Source: Escherichia coli (GTDB taxonomy: Bacteria > Pseudomonadota > Gammaproteobacteria > Enterobacterales > Enterobacteriaceae). From it: a stretch of DNA of 64,000 nt. Positions 23,329-58,739 of this stretch are shown here, one piece after another. Position 1 is the first letter of the stretch; the number at the start of each line of letters is the position of its first letter. The notes under the pieces are model-generated. The model searched no databases. It was not told the origin of the DNA and saw only the letters and a list, made by a program, of their open reading frames with translations. The position numbers and the translations under genes were made by a program. The stretch is from assembly GCF_030013595.1 (NCBI RefSeq), contig NZ_CP122768.1. One strand, given 5' to 3'.

Positions 23329-23461
23329 TTTTTGGGACTCCTGGCTGATTAAGTATGTCGATAAGGCGTTTCCATCCGTCACGTAATTTACGGGTGATTC
23401 GTTCAAGTAAAGATTCGGAAGGGCAGCCAGCAACAGGCCACCCTGCAATGGCATATTGCAT
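23297..23461 (-). CDS. cIII: cIII (FtsH inhibitor), 54 aa; below the ORF-track length cutoff
   Basis: Manual translation of the minus strand: [54 protein letters not shown]. Confidence 0.7.
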   Translation of the reverse strand: MQYAIAGWPVAGCPSESLLERITRKLRDGWKRLIDILNQPGVPKNGSNTYGYPD

Positions 23462-23533
23462 GGTGTGCTCCTTATTTATACATAACGAAAAACGCCTCGA
23501 GTGAAGCGTTATTGGTATGCGGTAAAGCCGCGC

Positions 23534-33950: not shown

Positions 33951-34025
33951 GGGTCAGTCGTATAAAGGTCATTACGGAAGGCTGTTAACCTTCTTATCGT
34001 GGTTCGAGTCCACGCTGTCCCGCCA
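33951..34025 (+). tRNA. Candidate phage-encoded tRNA (anticodon GTT, Asn-like); atypical D-arm and one acceptor-stem mismatch
   Basis: Manual fold: acceptor GGGTCAG/CTGTCCC, anticodon stem GAAGG/CCTTC with loop CTGTTAA, T-arm CGTGG-TTCGAGT-CCACG, 3' GCCA. Confidence 0.45.
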
Positions 34026-34030
34026 AATAT

Positions 34031-34106
34031 GCTGGTTTAGCTCCAATGGTAGAGCGGTCGCCTTGTAAGCGAATGGGTAGCGGTTCAAGTCCGTTAACCA
34101 GCACCA
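34031..34106 (+). tRNA. Candidate phage-encoded tRNA (anticodon TGT, Thr-like)
   Basis: Manual fold: acceptor GCTGGTT/AACCAGC, D-arm GCTC-CAATGGTA-GAGC, anticodon loop CTTGTAA, T-arm AGCGG-TTCAAGT-CCGTT, 3' ACCA. Confidence 0.5.
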
Positions 34107-36484: not shown

Positions 36485-36691
36485 CGGCAGTACCGCGAAA
36501 CAACCCAAGCCAGTAAGTGGGGAAATAACTGAAAGATGAACCTCCAGCCTTATGGCAAAAAAGATTCTTTGTGGTGGCGGACTGATGGAAAGACATCGGA
36601 TAGAATAAAACAGTGGCTAGGGTAGCTCCCGAAAAGCGGAATCGTCACCGCCAGCCACTGAATCTATGACGAACAACTAGACGAGGTTGAT

Positions 36692-47942: not shown

Positions 47943-49325
47943 ATGGCTAGTTGGCAACAAGGAATCAACTCAGGCGGCTTTCTTGCTGGTATCGGTGGGC
48001 AAAACTCAAATGCGCCAAAGGCAAGTGATGTAAGTGAGGCGTTGGCCTATATTCGCCAGAACAACGAAATGGAGCGCTCAGGTCGCAATAACATCGGCCT
48101 TCAGGCGTTGCAGGGGCTTGGTAGTGTCGCTCAAACATATCAAGCCGCAAAGCAACAGGAATTCCAAAAAGAATATGCGGCAGCCATCCAGTCAGGTGAT
48201 CGGCAGCAGGTGCGAGATCTGATGACCAAATATCCTGGTCAATTAGAGAAGATTCAGTCTGGTATGAAGTGGGCAGACGAAGACCAGCGCAATTCTATCG
48301 GCACCTTAGCGGCTGGCGCACGCCTTGCGTCATCGTCTCCAGAAGCAATGCAATCATGGCTGCAAAACAACGCCAAGGAACTGGCGCGCGTCGGTGTTGA
48401 CCCTAACAGCGTTGCTCAGATGTATCAGCAAAACCCTTCAGGATTTGGTGAGTTTGTTGATCACCTTGGAATGGCTGCTCTTGGTCCGATTGATTACTTC
48501 AATGTTCAGGACAAGATGGCTGGTCGTGAAATTGACCGAGGCAAACTGGCAGAGACAATCCGCAGCAATCAGGCTGGCGAGGCGCTAACAGCACGAGGCC
48601 AGAACATCACGATGCGCGGTCAGGACTTATCTGCTTCTACTGCGCGACGAGGTCAGGATTTGGCAATGCAGCGAGCGTCAACAAGACGAATCGCTGGGAA
48701 TGATGAGCGTACAGTTCAGTTATCAGATGGCAGAACTGTAACGGTAGGCGGGAAGCTTCACGGCGCTGGGGCTAATGCGTTCTACGAAGGCATCGACAAC
48801 GAGGGGAATATGGTTCGCGTCCCTGCTGGCTCTATTGCCGCTCCGGCTACATCGGCAGCAAGCGCGCAGAATTACGCAATGAAGAAAGATCTTGATGCAA
48901 TTTCTGGTGCATCAATTGACGATCTTGGCTTCATGACTGGCATTACAGGCTCTTCAGGTTCTCCTGCTCTTGGTGCAGATATTCGTAGCCGTGCATCTGG
49001 TGGTGATCAGAGGAAACTATACAACGCTGCACAGCGAATCCAAGGAAAGATGCAGAATCAGGGCATTGCAGCAGCCAGAGACATGGGGGCATCCGGTATC
49101 AACACCGTTGCAGAAGCAAAGATGTATTTTCAAGGTATGCCACAGGTTGATTTCTCAAGCCCTGAAGCACTGCAACAATCAATGCGCGACATTCAGCAAT
49201 ATACCGACAATTACAACCAGCAATATAACGTTAATGTTGGTAAATCTCAGCGGCAGCAATCTCAACCTGCACAGGTATCACAGCCAGCAGCCAGCAGTAA
49301 CTTTTCTTCACTATGGGGTGATTAA
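47943..49325 (+). CDS. Ejection protein (P22 gp20-like)
   Basis: 460 aa, positional. Confidence 0.55.
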
Positions 49326-51430
49326 TGGCTAAAGCATGGAAAGATGTTATCGCTTCTCCACAGTATCAGGCGTTAGCACCAGAACAAAAAGCGCAGGCTC
49401 AGGAGCAATACTTCAATGAAGTCGTGGCCCCGCAAGCCGGAGAAAGTGTAGAGCAGGCTAAGCAGGCTTTTTATGCTGCCTATCCACTACCATCAACGAA
49501 TGAAATAGACCGATACCAATCAGCAACTCAAAATATTCAACATACATCATCTGATAATTCTCTTGCGTCAGGGTATGCAAAGTTAGCTACTCAGCAAAGA
49601 GAGGGGCTTGAGCGTTCAGCAGAACAGGGAGCCAGTCTTGGGGCTGCGATGCGCGATGCTATAACAGGCGAAAGCCGAATGACTCCAGAGATGGAGAGAC
49701 TGCAAAATGTCGACCTTGCCCCAGAGTTAACCTCACTCAGCATGGATGCTCTAAAAGCTCGATGGTCTCAACTTTTCGGCTCTGACGCATCTCAGGAAAA
49801 GATTCTTCAGAGCATGGGAGCGAAATTAAGGCAGGATGAGAAGGGGAACACTATCGTTTCCCTGCCATCCGGTGATTATGCTCTGAACAAGCCGGGTTTA
49901 TCGCCGCAAGACGTGGCATCGTTTCTGGCTAATGCGCTGGCGTTTACACCAGCGGGCAGGGCTGGAACGGTGCTTGGTGCCATAGGAAAATCAGCAGCTA
50001 CAGATTTAGCACTACAGGGAGCCACCAGCCTTGCTGGTGGAGAAGATATTGATCCGTTACAAACGGTAATTTCTGCTGGCATTGGTGGTATTGGTAAGGG
50101 GCTGGAAAATACAGCGAGTGCGGTTTCGAGGGCTGTTCGTGGTGATATGTCGCCTGAAGCAAAGGCTGCTGTCGACTTTGCATCGGAAAGAAATCTGCCG
50201 TTAATGACCAGTGACATGCTGAAAGATAAAACCTTTATGCAGAGTCAGGCTCAGACATTAGGCGAAAGAGTTCCTTTTTTTGGAACCGGTAAGAATCGGC
50301 TGAATCAACAACAAGCACGAGAAAATTTAGTCAGAACATTTAGCGATGGTCTGGGTGGTATTTCTGATAAACAGCTTTATGAATCTGCGACTAAAGGGCA
50401 ACAAAAATTCATTGAGGCAGCAGGAAAGCGATATAACCGCATAATTGACGCTATGGGGGATACCCCTGTCGATCTCTCAAACACGGTAAAAGCTATCGAC
50501 AATCAGATTGCCGTGTTAAGCCGCCCGGGCAAATCTCAGGATAGAGCCGCGGTAAAAGTCTTGCAGCAATTTAAAGACGATATCACCAGCGGGCCAAATG
50601 ACCTGCGTCTGGCGAGGGAAAACAGAACCGATCTTCGAAAGCGATTTATGGCGTCATCTGACACTGTTGATAAAGATACGCTCCAGAAAGCCAGCGATAT
50701 TATCTACAAGGCATATACGGCGGATATGAAAAAAGCCGTAGCCAAAAATCTTGGAGCAGACGAAGCCATTAATATGGCAAGGGTTGATCGCTCATGGTCT
50801 AAATTCAATGACATGATGGGAAGAACGCGCGTTCAAAAGGCAATAGCCAGCGGCAAGGCCACGCCTGAGGATGTAACAAAACTCGTTTTTAGCCAAAGCC
50901 CATCAGAACGTTCTCAGCTTTACAGGCTTCTGGATGACAATGGTAGGCAAAACGCACGAGCAGCCATAGTTCAGAATGCTGTAGATAAGGCGACTGATCC
51001 GTCTGGAAATATCAGTGTTGAGAAGTTTATTAATGCGTTACACCGGAACAGGAAGCAATCAGCAACTTTCTTTAAAGGCGTACATGGAAAGGAACTGGAC
51101 GGCGTTATTAAATACCTCAACGATACAAGACACGCGGCAAAAGCGAACGTTCAAAACTTAAATGGTCAGCAGCTTTATGGATTGTTAGTTGGTGGTGGCA
51201 TCATAAACGCAGCAGTATTAGCGGGGATGCTAAAAACGGCTGCGTTTGTTGTTCCTGCTGCTGGTGCCGTAGGCGGAGCAGCGAAGGCATACGAAAGCCC
51301 TGTTATACGAAATGCCTTGTTACGTCTGGCAAATACGCCAAAAGGTAGCACAGCATATGACAGAGCGATCAGTACGGTCACACAATCGCTCACCAGAGTC
51401 GCACAGGCATCACAAAAAGAAGCTCAATAA
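49325..51430 (+). CDS. Ejection protein (P22 gp16-like)
   Basis: 701 aa with hydrophobic C-terminal segments; last gene of the ejection-protein block. Confidence 0.6.
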   Translation: MAKAWKDVIASPQYQALAPEQKAQAQEQYFNEVVAPQAGESVEQAKQAFYAAYPLPSTNEIDRYQSATQNIQHTSSDNSLASGYAKLATQQREGLERSAEQGASLGAAMRDAITGESRMTPEMERLQNVDLAPELTSLSMDALKARWSQLFGSDASQEKILQSMGAKLRQDEKGNTIVSLPSGDYALNKPGLSPQDVASFLANALAFTPAGRAGTVLGAIGKSAATDLALQGATSLAGGEDIDPLQTVISAGIGGIGKGLENTASAVSRAVRGDMSPEAKAAVDFASERNLPLMTSDMLKDKTFMQSQAQTLGERVPFFGTGKNRLNQQQARENLVRTFSDGLGGISDKQLYESATKGQQKFIEAAGKRYNRIIDAMGDTPVDLSNTVKAIDNQIAVLSRPGKSQDRAAVKVLQQFKDDITSGPNDLRLARENRTDLRKRFMASSDTVDKDTLQKASDIIYKAYTADMKKAVAKNLGADEAINMARVDRSWSKFNDMMGRTRVQKAIASGKATPEDVTKLVFSQSPSERSQLYRLLDDNGRQNARAAIVQNAVDKATDPSGNISVEKFINALHRNRKQSATFFKGVHGKELDGVIKYLNDTRHAAKANVQNLNGQQLYGLLVGGGIINAAVLAGMLKTAAFVVPAAGAVGGAAKAYESPVIRNALLRLANTPKGSTAYDRAISTVTQSLTRVAQASQKEAQ

Positions 51431-51448
51431 CTGGTTAGCCATGGATGG

Positions 51449-51637
51449 TTATTTCCTTAGCACATGAAACAATGTTTGCTTTAATTCCACCCATACAATT
51501 ATGACCACTATAGACAGACAAAAGAAACTGAATGCATTGGCATCACGATCGAAACCTTCTCCGGCACTAAATCCGTAAAAGGTCATAAAAAATATAAAAA
51601 TTGCGCACTTTGCAACGTTTACAAATTTTTTCTTCAC
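51449..51637 (-). CDS. Small hydrophobic membrane protein (62 aa, two predicted TM helices), antisense to the tail operon
   Basis: GTG start 5 nt after a perfect AAGGAGG SD on the minus strand; strongly hydrophobic translation. Confidence 0.5.
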   Translation of the reverse strand: MKKKFVNVAKCAIFIFFMTFYGFSAGEGFDRDANAFSFFCLSIVVIIVWVELKQTLFHVLRK

Positions 51638-52011
51638 ACCAACCTCCTTAGTTTTGCTCAGGATACCAGATGATACTTTATTGGTGGAGTGGTGTGTGAA
51701 AACGTGTCAACGACAAACCATCCACAACTTGGACGAATGATTTAGCAAAAAGTGCTATTTTTGGTGTTTAGTGTCATAGAAAAGTGAATAGCTCACTTTT
51801 CAACATTGCATGAAACTTGCAGGAAATGTGACATTACCTTATAGGTAATTTCGGCGAAAATGCAGTAAATGTGAAACGTAATGGTTTAAACATGTCGCTA
51901 AAGTGGTTGTAAGTTAGCCTCCGAAGGATTGCTGATAGCTTTGTTATAGTATTAAATGACATTTGACATAGTTGGATACTTAGCTGTGGCTATCAAGATG
52001 GAGGTGTGTTC

Positions 52012-52455
52012 ATGCTTACTTGTTTTGATGTCGCCGACTACTTCCTGTCGCGGTGTGACGAGGATAGCGGTGACACAATCTCTAATTTAAAATTACAAAA
52101 GCTTGTTTACTATGCTCAGGGGTTTTCATTGGCGTTGCTTGGTGAGCCTCTTTTTCAGAATAAGATGGAAGCTTGGATGCATGGCCCTGTTGTCCCTGAG
52201 CTTTATCGCCGTTATAAACAATATGGTAATGGAGCTATCCCTTCTCCAGAGTCTTTTGATGCTGAAAAATTCAGCGAAGAACAGTTAGAGCTATTAGAAG
52301 AAGTCTGGGATGTTTTTGGGCAATTTTCTGCCTGGAAACTGAGGAACATGACACACGAAGAGTCACCATGGAGATCAAACTATATTGAGGGTGTTGGTGG
52401 TTCTGAAATTAGCTCTAAGGAGATGGCAGAGTACTTTGCAACTCGGATTAACTAA
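52012..52455 (+). CDS. Panacea/DUF4065-like (SocA/GepA-type) protein, putative antitoxin-type component
   Basis: MLTCFDVADYFLSRC...NLKLQKLVYYAQGFSLALLGEPLF...AWMHGPVVPELY matches the recalled DUF4065 signature; GAGGTG SD upstream. Confidence 0.55.
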   Translation: MLTCFDVADYFLSRCDEDSGDTISNLKLQKLVYYAQGFSLALLGEPLFQNKMEAWMHGPVVPELYRRYKQYGNGAIPSPESFDAEKFSEEQLELLEEVWDVFGQFSAWKLRNMTHEESPWRSNYIEGVGGSEISSKEMAEYFATRIN

Positions 52456-52459
52456 CGAG

Positions 52460-52879
52460 ATGGCAAGAAAATCTAAAAGGATTATCCCCCCTGCTGAATC
52501 TACAGGTAAGTTAAAGTTAGGGCCGCAGTCAGGGGGGAATTCAGATCAAAAGAAACCGAAATTTTCATTCTGTTACATCCAAAGCTCTCACTGCATAACG
52601 AAATGCCAAAAAGATGAGAAAGCTGGCTTAGCTGATAAATTATACAGATTAAGTCAACTAACATGGGCAGAGATTAAGCAGCAAGGTAGGCATAAGCTTG
52701 GATTTGAGAAGATTGCAAGGGGTGCAATTAAAGCTGGTATCCCCGGTCATATAACGGAAGACGTAGATCATTTCTTGGCTTTTAGATTTGATGATTTGAA
52801 AGCCATGGTTGGTTATCGTCTTGGATCGACATTTTTTGTTATATGGCTTGATAGAGAGTTCAACCTATACAAGCACTAA
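52460..52879 (+). CDS. Unknown partner protein (139 aa), translationally coupled to the Panacea-like gene; candidate toxin/effector
   Basis: ATG 4 bp after the upstream stop; basic N-terminus, Cys/His cluster, C-terminal ...GYRLGSTFFVIWLDREFNLYKH; strong terminator follows. Confidence 0.5.
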   Translation: MARKSKRIIPPAESTGKLKLGPQSGGNSDQKKPKFSFCYIQSSHCITKCQKDEKAGLADKLYRLSQLTWAEIKQQGRHKLGFEKIARGAIKAGIPGHITEDVDHFLAFRFDDLKAMVGYRLGSTFFVIWLDREFNLYKH

Positions 52880-52881
52880 TA

Positions 52882-52908
52882 AAACCCACCGTCAGGTGGG
52901 TTTTTTTG
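52882..52908 (+). terminator. Rho-independent terminator ending the two-gene operon
   Basis: cccacc-gtca-ggtggg hairpin followed by TTTTTTT. Confidence 0.75.
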
Positions 52909-52923
52909 TTGGAGATAAAATGG

Positions 52924-53127
52924 TTAACCAAATCGATCCTTAAAGCGTCTATCGCTGTTGCGTCTCTCCATTTTACTGTTGCAGTACGGACAAAGATGCT
53001 GTTTCTTTCCATCGATAGTCCATGTGAAGTACTTTTTCTTAAATCCAGCACCACAGATATCGCAACTTCTTGGTTTAAACATACTGGCTATGAAGATAAG
53101 AACAACAAATCCTATGATCCATTCCAT
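52924..53127 (-). CDS. Small membrane-anchored zinc-ribbon protein (67 aa)
   Basis: N-terminal TM helix MEWIIGFVVLIFIASMF followed by CDICG...CPYC zinc-ribbon pattern. Confidence 0.35.
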   Translation of the reverse strand: MEWIIGFVVLIFIASMFKPRSCDICGAGFKKKYFTWTIDGKKQHLCPYCNSKMERRNSDRRFKDRFG

Positions 53128-53268
53128 ATCATGTACCTGTTTTAACTTTATTTTTTGATTTTTAGGGATTAATCAGAAACTTTATCTTGCGATTAAGCAA
53201 AGCTACTAGCTAACAAAAGAGTGCGTATACAATCAATCGTTTCACATCAACCTCAACAAGGAGAAATC

Positions 53269-53454
53269 ATGACCATAGAAGAACGCCTGAACAACATTGA
53301 GTTGAACCAAACCCTGCTTGACCAGCGACTTTCAGATCTTGAGCTTAAAGATCTGGATGCGCAAATATCAGAAGCAGAAGCCAAGCTCTCCAGCTTAAAC
53401 CACCGCAAGAAGCAAATCCGCAACAGAATTACTCAGGGACGCGGAAGCCGTTGA
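53269..53454 (+). CDS. Small coiled-coil protein (61 aa)
   Basis: ATG preceded by AAGGAG SD at ideal spacing; heptad-like MTIEERLNNIELNQTLLDQRLSDLELKDLDAQISEAEAKL. Confidence 0.4.
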   Translation: MTIEERLNNIELNQTLLDQRLSDLELKDLDAQISEAEAKLSSLNHRKKQIRNRITQGRGSR

Positions 53455-53463
53455 AATCCTAGT

Positions 53464-53781
53464 CTATTTTTTCTCAGAGCTCATATTGTAATAGGTGGTA
53501 TAAATAGAGATTGATTTCTGACATGCTTCAAGAAATTGCTGCGGAGTCATCCCGAGCCTTGCTTGCTCTGTAGTAAGGAATCTCTGTAAGAATTCATTCC
53601 CACCTGGCATGTTTGTAGATTCTTGGAATATTGCCATTTGTTTGATTGCACCACACATACCAGCCATTTTAGAAGCTATCATGAGGCCTTGTATTTCATC
53701 AAAACTGCTATCGTCTGATTTTGTTTCTGCGTTAGCTATGCTCGAGAGACACAGGAGCAATAGGATAGCGATACGTTTCAT
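53464..53781 (-). CDS. Secreted/periplasmic protein (105 aa, cleavable signal peptide), co-transcribed with the mnt-like gene
   Basis: MKRIAILLLLCLSSIANA signal sequence; start overlaps the mnt-like stop (ATGA). Confidence 0.5.
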   Translation of the reverse strand: MKRIAILLLLCLSSIANAETKSDDSSFDEIQGLMIASKMAGMCGAIKQMAIFQESTNMPGGNEFLQRFLTTEQARLGMTPQQFLEACQKSISIYTTYYNMSSEKK

Positions 53782-54029
53782 TTTTCACCATTGCCATGCA
53801 TACATTTTAACTTCTCAACATCATGCTCAAGCTCTATCAGTCGCGATGCTATAGTTGCAAGATCTAGTGCTTGAATGTGTTTGTTTTTTTCGGTCCATGC
53901 TTCAAGTGCTGCGACCATCTCAGCATTTAATGAACGAGAATTAGCCTCAGCCAGTTCAATAAGACGTTCCTTTATCTCTACAGGAAGCCTCAGATTCACT
54001 TGAGGGTTTTTGTACTTACGATCAGACAT
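53778..54029 (-). CDS. Mnt-like ribbon-helix-helix repressor (Arc/MetJ family)
   Basis: 83 aa; N-terminal ...NLRLPVEIKERLIELAEANSRSLNAEMVAALEAW RHH fold; divergent from the arc/ant pair as in P22 immI. Confidence 0.7.
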   Translation of the reverse strand: MSDRKYKNPQVNLRLPVEIKERLIELAEANSRSLNAEMVAALEAWTEKNKHIQALDLATIASRLIELEHDVEKLKCMHGNGEK

Positions 54030-54104: not shown

Positions 54105-54121
54105 GTATGCGTACCACATAC
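54105..54121. promoter_or_regulatory. Candidate operator: imperfect palindrome GTATGCGTACCACATAC with ATGCGTACC repeated 21 bp upstream
   Basis: In the divergent mnt-like/arc-like intergenic region, just upstream of the arc-like start. Confidence 0.4.
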
Positions 54122-54133
54122 AAAGGAGCAAAA

Positions 54134-54280
54134 ATGAAAGTTAAGACATTAAGGATGCCAGAATGGCTGGAAAAGGCTTTGGAGCAGTCCGCGAAAAAGG
54201 ATGATCGGTCGTTCAGTAATGAGGTATTGAGGAGACTAAAGGAGTCAGTAGCTAAGGATGGAATTGTTTGTCCAGAATGA
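54134..54280 (+). CDS. Arc-like ribbon-helix-helix repressor (48 aa; below ORF-track cutoff)
   Basis: Manual translation MKVKTLRMPEWLEKALEQSAKKDDRSFSNEVLRRLKESVAKDGIVCPE; GGAG SD upstream; precedes the ant-like gene. Confidence 0.55.
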   Translation: MKVKTLRMPEWLEKALEQSAKKDDRSFSNEVLRRLKESVAKDGIVCPE

Positions 54281-54346: not shown

Positions 54347-55276
54347 ATGAAAAGTATAGCAACAGCAGTATCTACTATCAACGTGCCATTCCACGGCGCA
54401 GAGCTTTATGTCGTCAATCACAACGGTGAGCCGTACACCCCAATGAAACCTATCGTTGAAGGTATGGGTATGGATTGGGCTTCACAGTTTACGAAAATAA
54501 AGCAACGGTTTAAAACCTCCATTGTGAAAATCACAATGCAGCTTCCTGGTGATGAACAGTGCCGTGAGATTATTTGTTTGGCACTTCGCAAACTTGCTGG
54601 CTGGCTGCAAACCATCAGTCCAAACAAAGTCCGCCCTGAAATCCGCGACAAGGTAATCCAGTATCAGGAAGAGTGTGACGATGTGCTATACGAGTACTGG
54701 ACTAAAGGCCATGTAGTTAACCCACGCAAAGCTAAAAAGGCGTTGCCGGGTAAAATCACCACTGAACAGCAGGAAGCCATTAAACAACTCGTCATGAGTC
54801 GCGGTCAGTCTCTGCCAAAAGAAAAACAGGCTAAGGCGATGATCACCATGTGGTCGTCACTGAAATCCCATTTTGGATGTTCGTACAAAGAAATCAGTGA
54901 GGAGCAGTTTACCGAAGCACTGTCACTTGCTGCTCGAGTTCCACTTGAAGGTGAGTTCATTGGCAAACAAGAGAAGAAAACCAACGAGCTTTCTGCAAAA
55001 GAAGCAAACAGCCTTGTATGGCTCTGGGATTATGCTAACCGTTCACAGGCATTATTCCGCGAATTGTATCCGGCGCTAAAACAAATTCAATCGAACTATT
55101 CCGGCAGATGCTACGACTACGGTCATGAATTCTCGTATGTTATCGGAATGGCGAGAGACGTTTTAATCAATCACACACGAGATGTTGATATTAATGAGCC
55201 AGACGGACCAACGAATCTTTCCGCATGGATGAGACTTAAGAATAAAGAATTACCTCCTTCAGTACATAACTACTGA
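54347..55276 (+). CDS. Antirepressor (Ant-like)
   Basis: 309-aa ORF following the arc-like gene, in the position of P22 ant. Confidence 0.6.
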
Positions 55277-55376: not shown

Positions 55377-57272
55377 ATGACAGACATTACAGCCAATGTG
55401 ATCGTATCGATGCCTTCGCAACTCTTCACTATGGCGCGTTCTTTTAAAGCCGTAGCCAATGGCAAAATTTATATAGGGAAAATTGACACTGACCCGGTAA
55501 ATCCTGAAAACCAGATTCAGGTTTATGTGGAGAATGAAGATGGCTCTCACGTTCCTGTTTCGCAACCAATAATCATTAACGCTGCCGGATATCCGGTATA
55601 TAACGGACAGATTGCCAAGTTCGTAACTGTGCAAGGCCATTCTATGGCTGTTTATGATGCGTATGGGGCGCAGCAGTTCTATTTTCCTAATGTGCTGAAG
55701 TATGACCCTGACCAATTAAGACAGGAGCTATCTAAGCAGACTGATGGTTATTTTTTTAACCTTCCTCAAGGTGGTGTACTACATGATGCAATAAAGTATG
55801 TAACACCAGAAATGTATATCAATACATCTTCAGATATTACATCTGCTATACAAAGTGCATTTGACAATGGAAATGTGATTGATATGTCAGGTAGAGACTG
55901 GACTCTTGAGAGAACAATCCATGTCGGTGATGGCACTGAAATAAAGTTAGGCGCATCAACAATTACATGTCAACTTGGTTCTAAACCTGCTTTTGACTTT
56001 AGAGGAACAGATAAAGGACTCCTGGTCACAGGAGGTAAGTTTATTGGTAATTGCTCTGCAGTATTTTATTTCCAAGGGACTACTGCTTTCCCTTCTCAAT
56101 CAGGTCACTATGCAAGAAAAATAAGAATATACGGCACAGATGCTACTTCAGATACGGATGAGATAATTGATTTCATCTATATGAAGGACGCTGTAAGGCA
56201 AGTTTTTATTGATTCATGTTATGCATATGTAAAAAACGGCATTACTGCAAGCGGGAAATGTGTGGAGGTGAAAGTCCAAAAAAGCATATTCAACTCAGGA
56301 ACTTCCGATCAAAGTTCTTCTAGGATAAGTCTAAATTCACCGTCAGGAGCAAGTTATTACAACGAAGGTTGGCATTTTAGTGATTGTACAATTGATGGAG
56401 TTGGAAAATCATTTAATGTTACCGATATATATTCGTTAACCATCAATGGAGGATTTATCGGTGGTGAGGTTGCGTTTGGACAGCCAATAACAACACATTG
56501 CCGTGAGATCGTACTCGGTGGTGGATTAATCATGAAAGGGCGTGTTACTTTCACGCCAACCGTACAATATGACTACAGGGCCAACATATCTCCTTCTCTT
56601 ATGTTTGGTAATGGTGGAGTTGGAAACGTGGTCCTTAATGCAGGTGCTTCAGGCATCAACGTTAGCACAAAACTTGAAAGTTCTGGTGTTTCAGGAGGAA
56701 CTGGCGTTATTGTTAATGAAGGATGTTCTAATGTTAACGTTGACCTGAGCGCTGATAATACGTATGAAAGACTGGCGTCATTCAATGGTTACGGACCAAG
56801 GTGTTCCGCTTTGATACGTAACTACATGGGAAGCTCTCACCCAATTTATACAGAGCGACCATTAAAGATTATATCATCGCCTGTCACTGACGACGCTGGT
56901 TCTCTGCAGGTTATGAGTTTTGTAAATATACCAGCAGGAAGCTATATTGTTGGTTCTGTTATGTCTGAGGTGAAAGTGACTGCACCAAAAGGTTCTAGAG
57001 GGAAAATTTCTCTTACCATTTCACTGAGTGGATTAACAGGCACATCTTCACAGGCGCTTATTGTAAATATTCCTGCCGGAATGGTTACCCCATCCGGTTT
57101 AGGTTGGGCTTCAAATGTTATTAGACCTCAGTTTGCGGCTGGAATAATGAGTATTGAAATACCATTTTATACAACCACAGACATTGCAGAATCCTCATTA
57201 TCTGTATCTAATTTCTCAGGAAATACAGCAATTGTTGGACTAAACTCTTACATTGGATATTTTTTGATATGA
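55377..57272 (+). CDS. Tailspike protein: conserved P22/Sf6/HK620-type head-binding domain + divergent beta-helix receptor-binding domain
   Basis: N-terminal ~113 aa [60 protein letters not shown]...VLKYDPDQ; remainder Gly/Ser/Thr/Asn-rich and repetitive. Confidence 0.85.
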
Positions 57273-57348: not shown

Positions 57349-58539
57349 TTATTCATTTTCATCAAGCCAGTCCGCCCACCACTGCATCATTTCTCTGCGC
57401 TTGTCTAGATACTGAGCATGGTTGTAAATCCCACGCACAGATCCGCCGTTGGCATGTGCCAGTTGCACTTCAATAGCGTCAGCAGGCCATTCGTGCTCGT
57501 TCATAATTGTGCTGAATTCATGCCTGAATCCGTGACCGCTTTCCAGACCCTCATAGCCGATTTGTTTGATCACAAGCAATACCGCGTTCTCGCAGATTGG
57601 CTTCTTCTTATCGTTGCGCCCTGCAAAAACAAACTCTGATACTGGTTTGGTGATGGAGCTTAACGTAGTGAGAAGTTCAACCACCTGGTCTGACATCGGG
57701 ACCACATGAATTTTGCGTCCCTTCATCACGCTGGCGTCGATGGTGATAATCCTGTTTTCAAAATCGACGTTCTTCCATTGCATGGAGCGAAGCTCTTTCG
57801 TTCTTAGGGCTGTATAACGTAAAACTTTTGTCGCAATAAGCGATACGATACTTCCTGAAAATGTTGCCAGTGCTTTGTTGAATGCCGGGATCTGGTCTGC
57901 AGGAAGAAACGGGAAGTTCTTCTTGCGGTATCCTTTCATGGCGTCTGCAAGGTCAGGTGCCGGGTTATATTTAGCCCTTCCGGTGACAATAGCGTAACGG
58001 AAAACCTCTCCGCATCTTCTGCGGGCTTTGTTGGCTCGCTCCATTGCACCGCGATCTTCAAACCTGCGGATTACTTCAAGAAGTTGCATCGGCTCAATAT
58101 CCTGAATTTCAAGACCGCCGATGATGGGTAAAATGTCGTCATCAAACATTTTGGCAAGTTCAGTCGCATACCCTACAGACCAGACTTGCTTCTTGTGCTC
58201 GTACCATTCCTTGTAAATGGCGCTAAAGGAATTGTTGTTAGACGAAGCCTTTTTCGCTTTTACCGGATCGATGCCAACCGAGATGTCTTTCCTCGCAGTC
58301 CATGCTTTATCCCTTGCCTCTTGCAAAGTCATAAGCGGATATTTTCCGACGGTCAGGATTTTCTCCTTACCGTCAATCTTGTAGCGAAGCTGCCATACCT
58401 TTTTCCCGGATACAGGGACATAAAGGTACAATCCATTACCATCGAGAAGGCGGTATGGTTTTTCTTTCGGCTTTGCTGCTTCAATCTGCTTAACGGTGAG
58501 CATGGGTAAAAATCCGGTGGGTAAAATTATTTTATCCAC
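57349..58539 (-). CDS. intS: Tyrosine integrase, P4-type (IntS-like); start possibly at internal Met 58503
   Basis: ...MLTVKQIEAAKPKEKPYRLLDGNGLYLYV... with C-terminal catalytic region (HGFRH ... Y); directly adjacent to argW. Confidence 0.9.
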   Translation of the reverse strand: MDKIILPTGFLPMLTVKQIEAAKPKEKPYRLLDGNGLYLYVPVSGKKVWQLRYKIDGKEKILTVGKYPLMTLQEARDKAWTARKDISVGIDPVKAKKASSNNNSFSAIYKEWYEHKKQVWSVGYATELAKMFDDDILPIIGGLEIQDIEPMQLLEVIRRFEDRGAMERANKARRRCGEVFRYAIVTGRAKYNPAPDLADAMKGYRKKNFPFLPADQIPAFNKALATFSGSIVSLIATKVLRYTALRTKELRSMQWKNVDFENRIITIDASVMKGRKIHVVPMSDQVVELLTTLSSITKPVSEFVFAGRNDKKKPICENAVLLVIKQIGYEGLESGHGFRHEFSTIMNEHEWPADAIEVQLAHANGGSVRGIYNHAQYLDKRREMMQWWADWLDENE

Positions 58540-58664: not shown

Positions 58665-58679
58665 TGGTGTCCCCTGCAG
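58665..58679. repeat. Prophage attR core: 15-bp direct repeat (tggtgtcccctgcag) within the argW 3' end
   Basis: Exact copy of 19143..19157. Confidence 0.7.
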
Positions 58680-58739
58680 GAATCGAACCTGCAATTAGCC
58701 CTTAGGAGGGGCTCGTTATATCCATTTAACTAAGAGGAC
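58665..58739 (-). tRNA. argW: tRNA-Arg (anticodon CCU), argW; prophage attR at its 3' end
   Basis: Reverse complement reads GTCCTCTTAGTTAAATGGATATAACGAGCCCCTCCTAAGGGCTAATTGCAGGTTCGATTCCTGCAGGGGACACCA. Confidence 0.9.

Follow-up and report, generated by a model that had tools for sequence, protein, structure and literature searches.

Kurata et al. 2022 (PNAS 119:e2102212119, PMC8832971) renamed the protein domain DUF4065 Panacea and predicted 1,268 PanAT pairs, in which a Panacea gene (panA) is coupled to a putative toxin gene (panT), with 88 toxin clusters. Dataset S1 of that study places the pair YP_006560565.1/YP_006560566.1 of Salmonella phage vB_SemP_Emek (Emek) in PanAT cluster T1 (PMC8832971). 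T1 is the most abundant Panacea partner family. The window studied here, a stretch of 64,000 nucleotides from Escherichia coli contig NZ_CP122768.1 (assembly GCF_030013595.1), holds a P22-like E. coli prophage with a panA-panT pair located between gene 16 and the mnt/arc/ant block. This pair is like the Emek pair in 99% nucleotide identity across the whole cassette including its terminator, in gene order, in genome position (from the ejection genes to mnt/arc/ant) and in its stand-alone Panacea antitoxin. The two differ by few substitutions (e.g., G96S and E71D) and in the PanT start codons given in the databases.

Since the module has been catalogued and experimentally probed once, we rate the locus as already known: it is a PanAT module of cluster T1. 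Our preferred reading of its function, to which we assign a probability of roughly 0.6, is that the pair is a cargo module in which PanA restrains the RNase PanT, whose release would cause an arrest that benefits the prophage. An earlier note on this DNA, made from its letters without database searches, had suspected a toxin–antitoxin (TA)-like operon with a possibly undescribed effector. Its view of the architecture is upheld. The effector had already been described, however, as a T1 protein with the predicted activity 'mRNase' (PMC8832971).

The founding Panacea protein is SocA of SocAB, a type VI TA system of Caulobacter. SocA is a ClpXP adaptor and does not act by sequestering the toxin (PMC8832971). 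PanA of the window matches the NCBIfam model SocA_antitoxin (NF047745) at 71.4 bits, far under the 190-bit equivalog cut-off, so by its sequence the gene 1 product is a stand-alone Panacea protein rather than SocA itself. Membership in SocAB was rejected on this score and because the partner has a RelE-like fold and is not SocB. P22 SieA is likewise encoded by a lysogen-benefiting cargo gene, which P22-like phages have in the interval from gene 16 to mnt. Its fold and family differ from those of PanA and PanT, neither of which has a hydrophobic segment when the translations are read, and the SieA paper makes no mention of Panacea or of alternative cargo at the locus.

A cargo cassette in a variable interval

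We surveyed the pairing of the two genes at 89 loci with panT relatives, 80 on viral contigs and nine elsewhere. A Panacea gene lies directly upstream of the panT relative, on the same strand, at 86 of them. The loci that conserve the pair span Enterobacteria, Pseudomonas, Aeromonas, Solidesulfovibrio, Acidobacteria and metagenomes. In the window only 4 bp (CGAG) separate the panA stop from the panT start, and the Panacea partner scores above its Pfam threshold. The pair therefore has the properties by which Kurata et al. define a PanAT, namely two genes at most 100 nt apart that are conserved across species. The reading of a two-gene operon with a 4-bp gap, made in the earlier note, agrees with the open reading frame (ORF) listing and with our own reading of the sequence, and the NCBI Prokaryotic Genome Annotation Pipeline (PGAP) calls identical coding sequences of 147 and 139 amino acids (aa) in E. 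coli strain W4.

The pair occurs in P22-like phages, Pseudomonas phages, a P2-like Aeromonas prophage and a Solidesulfovibrio prophage, and, outside phages, on the chromosomes of an Acidobacterium and of a metagenomic bacterium. Both genes were present together in all four of the distant bacterial contexts, which include the Acidobacteria and the Solidesulfovibrio prophage. Among 5,426 complete E. coli genomes, each gene was found in 47 (about 1%), in 50 places each and always at full length.

The three unpaired loci among the 89 are decay products. Two related viral contigs each retain only the C-terminal part of PanT, as a 76-aa remnant, and lack a PanA in the vicinity (L051:4076-4306 and L056:4058-4288). 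At the third (L029:3688-4423), an intact 143-aa PanT directly follows a 100-aa fusion ORF, in which the N-terminus of a lambda-like tail-assembly gene I is joined to the last ~24 residues of PanA (...IEGVGYQVISHNELKDYFLTRIN).

Megablast comparisons defined the edges of the cassette. At 99% identity, the matches of Emek and of many E. coli prophages to the window are confined to ~51629-52906, and this homology ends right past the terminator. JEP4 and UPF_BP1 match only the DNA left of ~51675 and carry different genes in the cassette interval. Because homology stops at ~51629 and at the terminator, and because other P22-like phages carry different genes there, these breakpoints identify the locus as a self-contained, terminator-bounded cargo cassette ('moron') of ~1.3 kb in a variable region. 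The suggestion that the interval between gene 16 and mnt is a cargo-bearing hotspot is thus confirmed. As a clean unit bounded by its terminator, the cassette should be easy to move. It is missing from most P22-like phages, and is therefore dispensable for growth.

The Panacea protein and its RelE-like partner

Residues 28-120 of the panA product match the Pfam model SocA_Panacea (PF13274) with E=3.2e-24, covering model positions 1-112 of 113, so that the motifs KLQKLVYYAQG and AWMHGPV, which had been taken as a Panacea signature, are genuine. The protein also matches PHROG 1281 (E=6e-60), and PGAP names it 'Panacea domain-containing protein'. It carries no helix-turn-helix, PAD1 or zinc-binding accessory domain, and PADLOC returned no match for panA.

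The panT product matches PHROG 8366, of unknown function, with E = 7e-66. Its family is large and uniform (135-145 aa; 1,506 representatives at 50% identity, E <= 1e-3), and all members are labelled 'uncharacterized' in UniProt and the AlphaFold database. An AlphaFold2 model of PanT built with 48 relatives had a pLDDT of 88 and a pTM of 0.75. Its core (residues ~33-139) is predicted to adopt the RelE/YoeB/YafQ/HigB fold, with two helices packed on an antiparallel sheet, consistent with the faint RelE/ParE-type resemblance noticed earlier in the C-terminal part. The predicted fold is shared with the RelE/ParE (BECR) type II toxins RelE, YoeB, YafQ and HigB. Compared with RelE-type toxins, PanT has a basic N-terminal tail of ~30 residues with a conserved motif of its own and an ~18-residue insertion (87-103) between strands, and its partner is a globular Panacea protein, in contrast to the RelB/YefM/DinJ/HigA-type antitoxins.

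Residue conservation was counted over 259 aligned relatives of PanT. Conserved positions were E83 (259), D131 (256), R109 (255), Y137 (254) and the C-terminal H139 (253), followed by R120 (234) and H78 (224); E83, R109, Y137 and H139 are each at least 97% conserved. On a mapping by strand order only, the set E83/R109/H139/Y137 would resemble E46, R65, H83 and Y84 of YoeB and would be placed like the His/Asp/His residues of YafQ. The Cys/His cluster that the earlier note had singled out in PanT did not hold up: C38 and H44 each occur in a minority of the relatives (42/259 for H44), and the counts for C45 and C49 are 168/259 and 188/259 (about 65-73%). A zinc-binding cluster was rejected on these counts.

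The N-terminal tail of PanT (residues 1-30, 52460-52549) is of low confidence in the model (pLDDT 57-70), which is consistent with the basic, disordered N-terminus described earlier. It bears a moderately conserved linear motif (I/L5, K/R6, P10, G15, I/L/V18 and P21, then a near-invariant P33 and F35), and such a tail is normally missing from RelE-type toxins. The tail might bind PanA, contact the ribosome or RNA, or be autoinhibitory.

The only PADLOC match of panT was to NsnC (PDLC03891), the third protein and effector of the Menshen anti-phage defence system, over the C-terminal ~100 positions (E = 9e-6). All 11 PanT-T1 proteins compared (panT and ten diverse relatives) match NsnC at positions ~175-284 of 284, with E from 2e-10 to 2e-3, and the PanT core is thus related in sequence to the C-terminal effector region of NsnC. 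Li et al. 2025 (NAR gkaf357, PMC12065111) name this region of archetypal NsnC 'PB-BECR1' and describe it as an RNase domain that is RelE/YafQ-like and carries an H-R-H triad. We take the C-terminus of the PADLOC NsnC model to be PB-BECR1, which the paper calls the archetypal and majority type. Residues H78-R109-H139 of PanT fit the published triad. The homology connects a family of TA toxins with a system dedicated to defence, and it points to a candidate H/E-R-Y-H active site. Ten of the 11 proteins also match the NCBIfam 'MAG6450 family', below its cut-off, and a search on 'MAG6450' returned no functional information.

PanT and Menshen share the effector domain and not the system. NsnA (ParB-DUF262) and NsnB (ABC ATPase) adjoin NsnC, whereas the neighbours of panT are panA and phage genes. 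Membership in Menshen was rejected, as PanT has 139 aa without the N-terminal inactive-PIN (inPIN) domain and no NsnA or NsnB genes lie nearby. The Menshen paper does not mention Panacea partners (PMC12065111).

Instead of an RNase, PanT could be a ParE-like gyrase poison, or a binding protein with a catalytically dead RelE fold. We consider this very improbable. The RNases RelE, HigB, YoeB and YafQ all ranked above ParE as matches to the predicted fold of PanT; the near-invariant Glu, Arg, Tyr and C-terminal His of the PanT family are unneeded by ParE proteins; and the closest sequence relative, the NsnC C-terminal domain, is a predicted RNase with an H-R-H triad.

Proposed action and expression of the pair

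Stand-alone Panacea proteins of other PanATs neutralise their toxins directly (PMC10440598), and PanA-PanT complexes exist for other pairs (PMC8832971; PMC10440598). By analogy, PanA of the window would bind PanT directly and keep it inactive. PanT would be an endoribonuclease of the RelE superfamily, using E83, R109 (and/or R120), Y137 and the C-terminal H139. Once PanA was inactivated, degraded or triggered, say on superinfection by another phage or on loss of the prophage, the freed PanT would cleave RNA and stop translation, and the prophage would profit from the resulting abortive infection or post-segregational arrest. The present analysis itself shows the identities of the domains, a predicted fold, conserved residues, the gene pairing and the make-up of the cassette, and we infer the functional role of this particular pair throughout.

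Several results weigh against this reading. By sequence, PanT belongs to none of the named families (Pfam RelE/ParE, YafQ, HigB, YoeB and Gp49). No Pfam match was found even at E<=10, searching all PDB sequences with a profile yielded nothing relevant, only a chance match, and hhalign comparisons of the panT family gave probabilities <1% both with YafQ and YoeB as single sequences and with a 32-member YafQ family alignment. Because these sequence-level placements failed, the RelE-superfamily assignment of PanT rests on the predicted structure and on the published HHpred label. Furthermore, an AlphaFold model of PanA and PanT fused by a linker, PanA-(GGGGS)5-PanT (23 paired sequences), had both domains confident with a pTM of only 0.58. 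The PanT tail was still disordered in this model (pLDDT ~50) and there was no interface output, so that the modelling lends the PanA-PanT complex no computational support. A scan for consensus promoters found no + strand promoter upstream of panA. The L029 locus, with its intact PanT beside a PanA reduced to its last residues, points to tolerance of unopposed PanT, or else to the C-terminal tail of PanA as the part that matters. Finally, Table S1 of Kurata et al. lists the Emek PanT, which falls with PanT of the window in one 90% protein cluster, as 'not toxic' in E. coli BW25113 when expressed from pBAD33, and a second T1 member, from E. coli MOD1, is likewise 'not toxic' (PMC8832971). In favour of the reading, Clostridium cadaveris has a T1 member that proved toxic in E. 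coli, but its own PanA gave no rescue (PMC8832971).

The negative toxicity result is weak evidence, because the constructs are named by N-extended accessions. YP_006560566.1 is a 161-aa annotation, and the gap of '-62' in Dataset S1 is a 62-nt overlap with panA (PMC8832971). This form of the Emek protein has 22 extra residues, beginning MVVLKLVLRRWQSTLQLGLTNE, ahead of the conserved Met of the family. The MOD1 construct probably has 8 extra residues (a 147-aa annotation), judging from the gap of -20 nt in Dataset S1. Public PanT annotations use four starts, giving 139, 147, 160 and 161 aa (52385-52462; entries P0001, P0271 and P0277), and the longer forms begin at TTG codons within panA. The native 139-aa start (ATG at 52460) is backed by the start of the family alignment and by PGAP. 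The methods imply that the ORFs were synthesised according to their accessions; in that case, both 'not toxic' tests used non-native N-termini; by their accessions and overlaps, both enterobacterial T1 proteins appear to be N-terminally extended mis-annotations. The earlier note had named a non-toxic gene 2 as an outcome that would speak against a TA role; formally such an outcome exists in the Emek assay (PMC8832971), but for an extended construct. The classification of the locus as a catalogued PanAT module is unaffected by this flaw, by the NsnC link and by the candidate active site. The accessions of the Emek pair are not listed in the supplements of the NetFlax paper.

Taken at face value, the same tests would favour, in place of a classical toxin–antitoxin, a sensor-effector pair for abortive infection, in which PanT is inactive or weak alone and PanA is a phage sensor that switches on PanT or releases it in active form. 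Over-expressing PanT by itself would then do no harm. We think this unlikely. It would account for the two enterobacterial T1 PanTs that are not toxic in E. coli (PMC8832971) and for the intact PanT that L029 keeps beside a deleted PanA. It also agrees with the proposal that Panacea is primarily a sensor regulating activation (Ernits et al. 2023, PMC10440598), and in Menshen the same effector domain sits behind dedicated sensor and transducer proteins. However, the N-terminal extensions of the tested constructs (22 aa in Emek and probably 8 aa in MOD1) may make the negative results an artefact, the C. cadaveris T1 member is toxic alone, and the stand-alone Panacea PanAs characterised so far neutralise directly (PMC10440598). 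Moreover, L029 represents just one prophage, a defective one, and its PanT may not be expressed. A broader form of the idea, which we hold only as a tentative and rather doubtful one, is that the enterobacterial T1 protein is a conditionally activated RelE-fold RNase that needs PanA as phage sensor or activator and is not a free-standing toxin. If this were true, the cassette would be a minimal two-protein abortive-infection system of P22-like prophages, and the published 'not toxic' would be real biology rather than a start-codon artefact.

The signals around the operon bear on when the preferred restraint-and-release module would be expressed. The panT gene has no good Shine-Dalgarno sequence of its own and starts 4 bp past the panA stop, so the two genes are probably translationally coupled. 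The strong intrinsic terminator recognised earlier was recovered as a 10-pair GC-rich stem (52881-52904) followed by a T-run. Its RNA fold has -18.2 kcal/mol (z = -4.5), which was equalled by 0/200 shuffles. It is the one + strand site of the terminator scan and the only inverted repeat within 51430-53300, and no operator-like palindrome was found upstream of panA in the inverted-repeat search of that interval. The elements ATTGnT and TATTAAAT are invariant across four cassettes with otherwise divergent upstream DNA, and TGtTATAGT overlaps the conserved block TTGCTG ... TATTAAAT (51929-51957). The support for the promoter marked there is conservation in these four cassettes only; the cassette is probably served by a weak extended -10 promoter of its own, with a predicted transcription start at ~51957-51963. 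The same alignment keeps a small hairpin (51981-51992, TAGC-TGTG-GCTA; ATAGC-TGCG-GCTAT in related cassettes) just 5' of the panA Shine-Dalgarno sequence, which might act as an element of the mRNA or as a binding site.

Because the cassette lies downstream of the late operon with no intervening + strand terminator, read-through from that operon is possible, and the cassette may be transcribed in the lysogen and also late in lytic growth. The pair could then serve the lytic programme of the phage instead of acting in the lysogen, for example by controlled cleavage of host or phage mRNA or through PanA as a counter-defence against a host toxin. To this we give little credence. In its favour, the two genes follow the late operon directly and share its orientation, the terminator scan placed no + strand terminator-like site in the interval from gene 16 to panA, the promoter scan detected no strong consensus site, and Kurata et al. 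showed PanA to be evolvable towards neutralising non-cognate toxins (PMC8832971). However, the pair is also present in the non-phage chromosomes of Acidobacteria and of a metagenomic bacterium, and it takes differing positions in unrelated phage types, as is typical of autonomous cargo. Its absence from most P22-like phages and the conserved upstream block, which suggests a promoter of its own, also speak against a lytic role.

Feature coordinates and neighbouring genes

The features of the cassette and of the surrounding prophage are collected in Table 1.

Table 1 Features of the panA-panT cassette and its prophage setting (window coordinates).
Feature	Position	Strand	Remarks
Mobile cassette (promoter region, panA, panT and terminator)	51629-52906	.	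Homology breakpoints, Megablast
Promoter-like block TTGCTG ... TGtTATAGTATTAAAT	51929-51957	+	Putative and weak; read by eye
Shine-Dalgarno GGAGG of panA	52000-52004	+	7 nt 5' of ATG; invariant in the upstream alignment of four cassettes
panA (gene 1)	52012-52455	+	ATG to TAA, 147 aa; stand-alone Panacea (DUF4065), presumed antitoxin/regulator
panT (gene 2; Kurata cluster T1)	52460-52879	+	ATG to TAA, 139 aa; putative RNase of the RelE superfamily
Rho-independent terminator	52881-52908	+	End of operon and cassette; terminator scan and RNA fold; terminator also annotated in phage Emek
Gene-16 homologue (ejection protein)	49325-51430		
Mnt-like	53778-54029	-	
Arc-like	54107-54280		
Ant	54347-55276		
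Tailspike	55377-57272		
Integrase	57349-58539	-	
tRNA-Arg	58665-58739		

Small ORFs flank the cassette on both sides. Between gene 16 and the cassette lies a 62-aa hydrophobic ORF (51449-51637, - strand; PHROG 21338, function unknown), whose 5' end coincides with the left cassette breakpoint (~51629). Directly beyond the cassette terminator, on the opposite strand, is a 67-aa ORF (52924-53127, -) with a hydrophobic segment at its N-terminus followed by a zinc-ribbon-like CDIC...CPYC; it had no PHROG match. Further along, a 105-aa protein with a signal-peptide-like N-terminus is encoded at 53464-53781 (- strand; PHROG 19844, function unknown). Because its start overlaps the mnt stop, the lysogen probably transcribes this gene together with mnt, which makes it another candidate for lysogenic conversion or exclusion.

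Elsewhere, the prophage carries two tRNA genes at 33951-34106 (+), one for Asn(GTT) and one for Thr(TGT). Two Rfam matches scored above the gathering score, at 23416-23474 (-) and 36610-36672 (+): a Lambda cIII thermoregulator element with 88.5 bits and an int-alpA small RNA (sRNA) with 42 bits.
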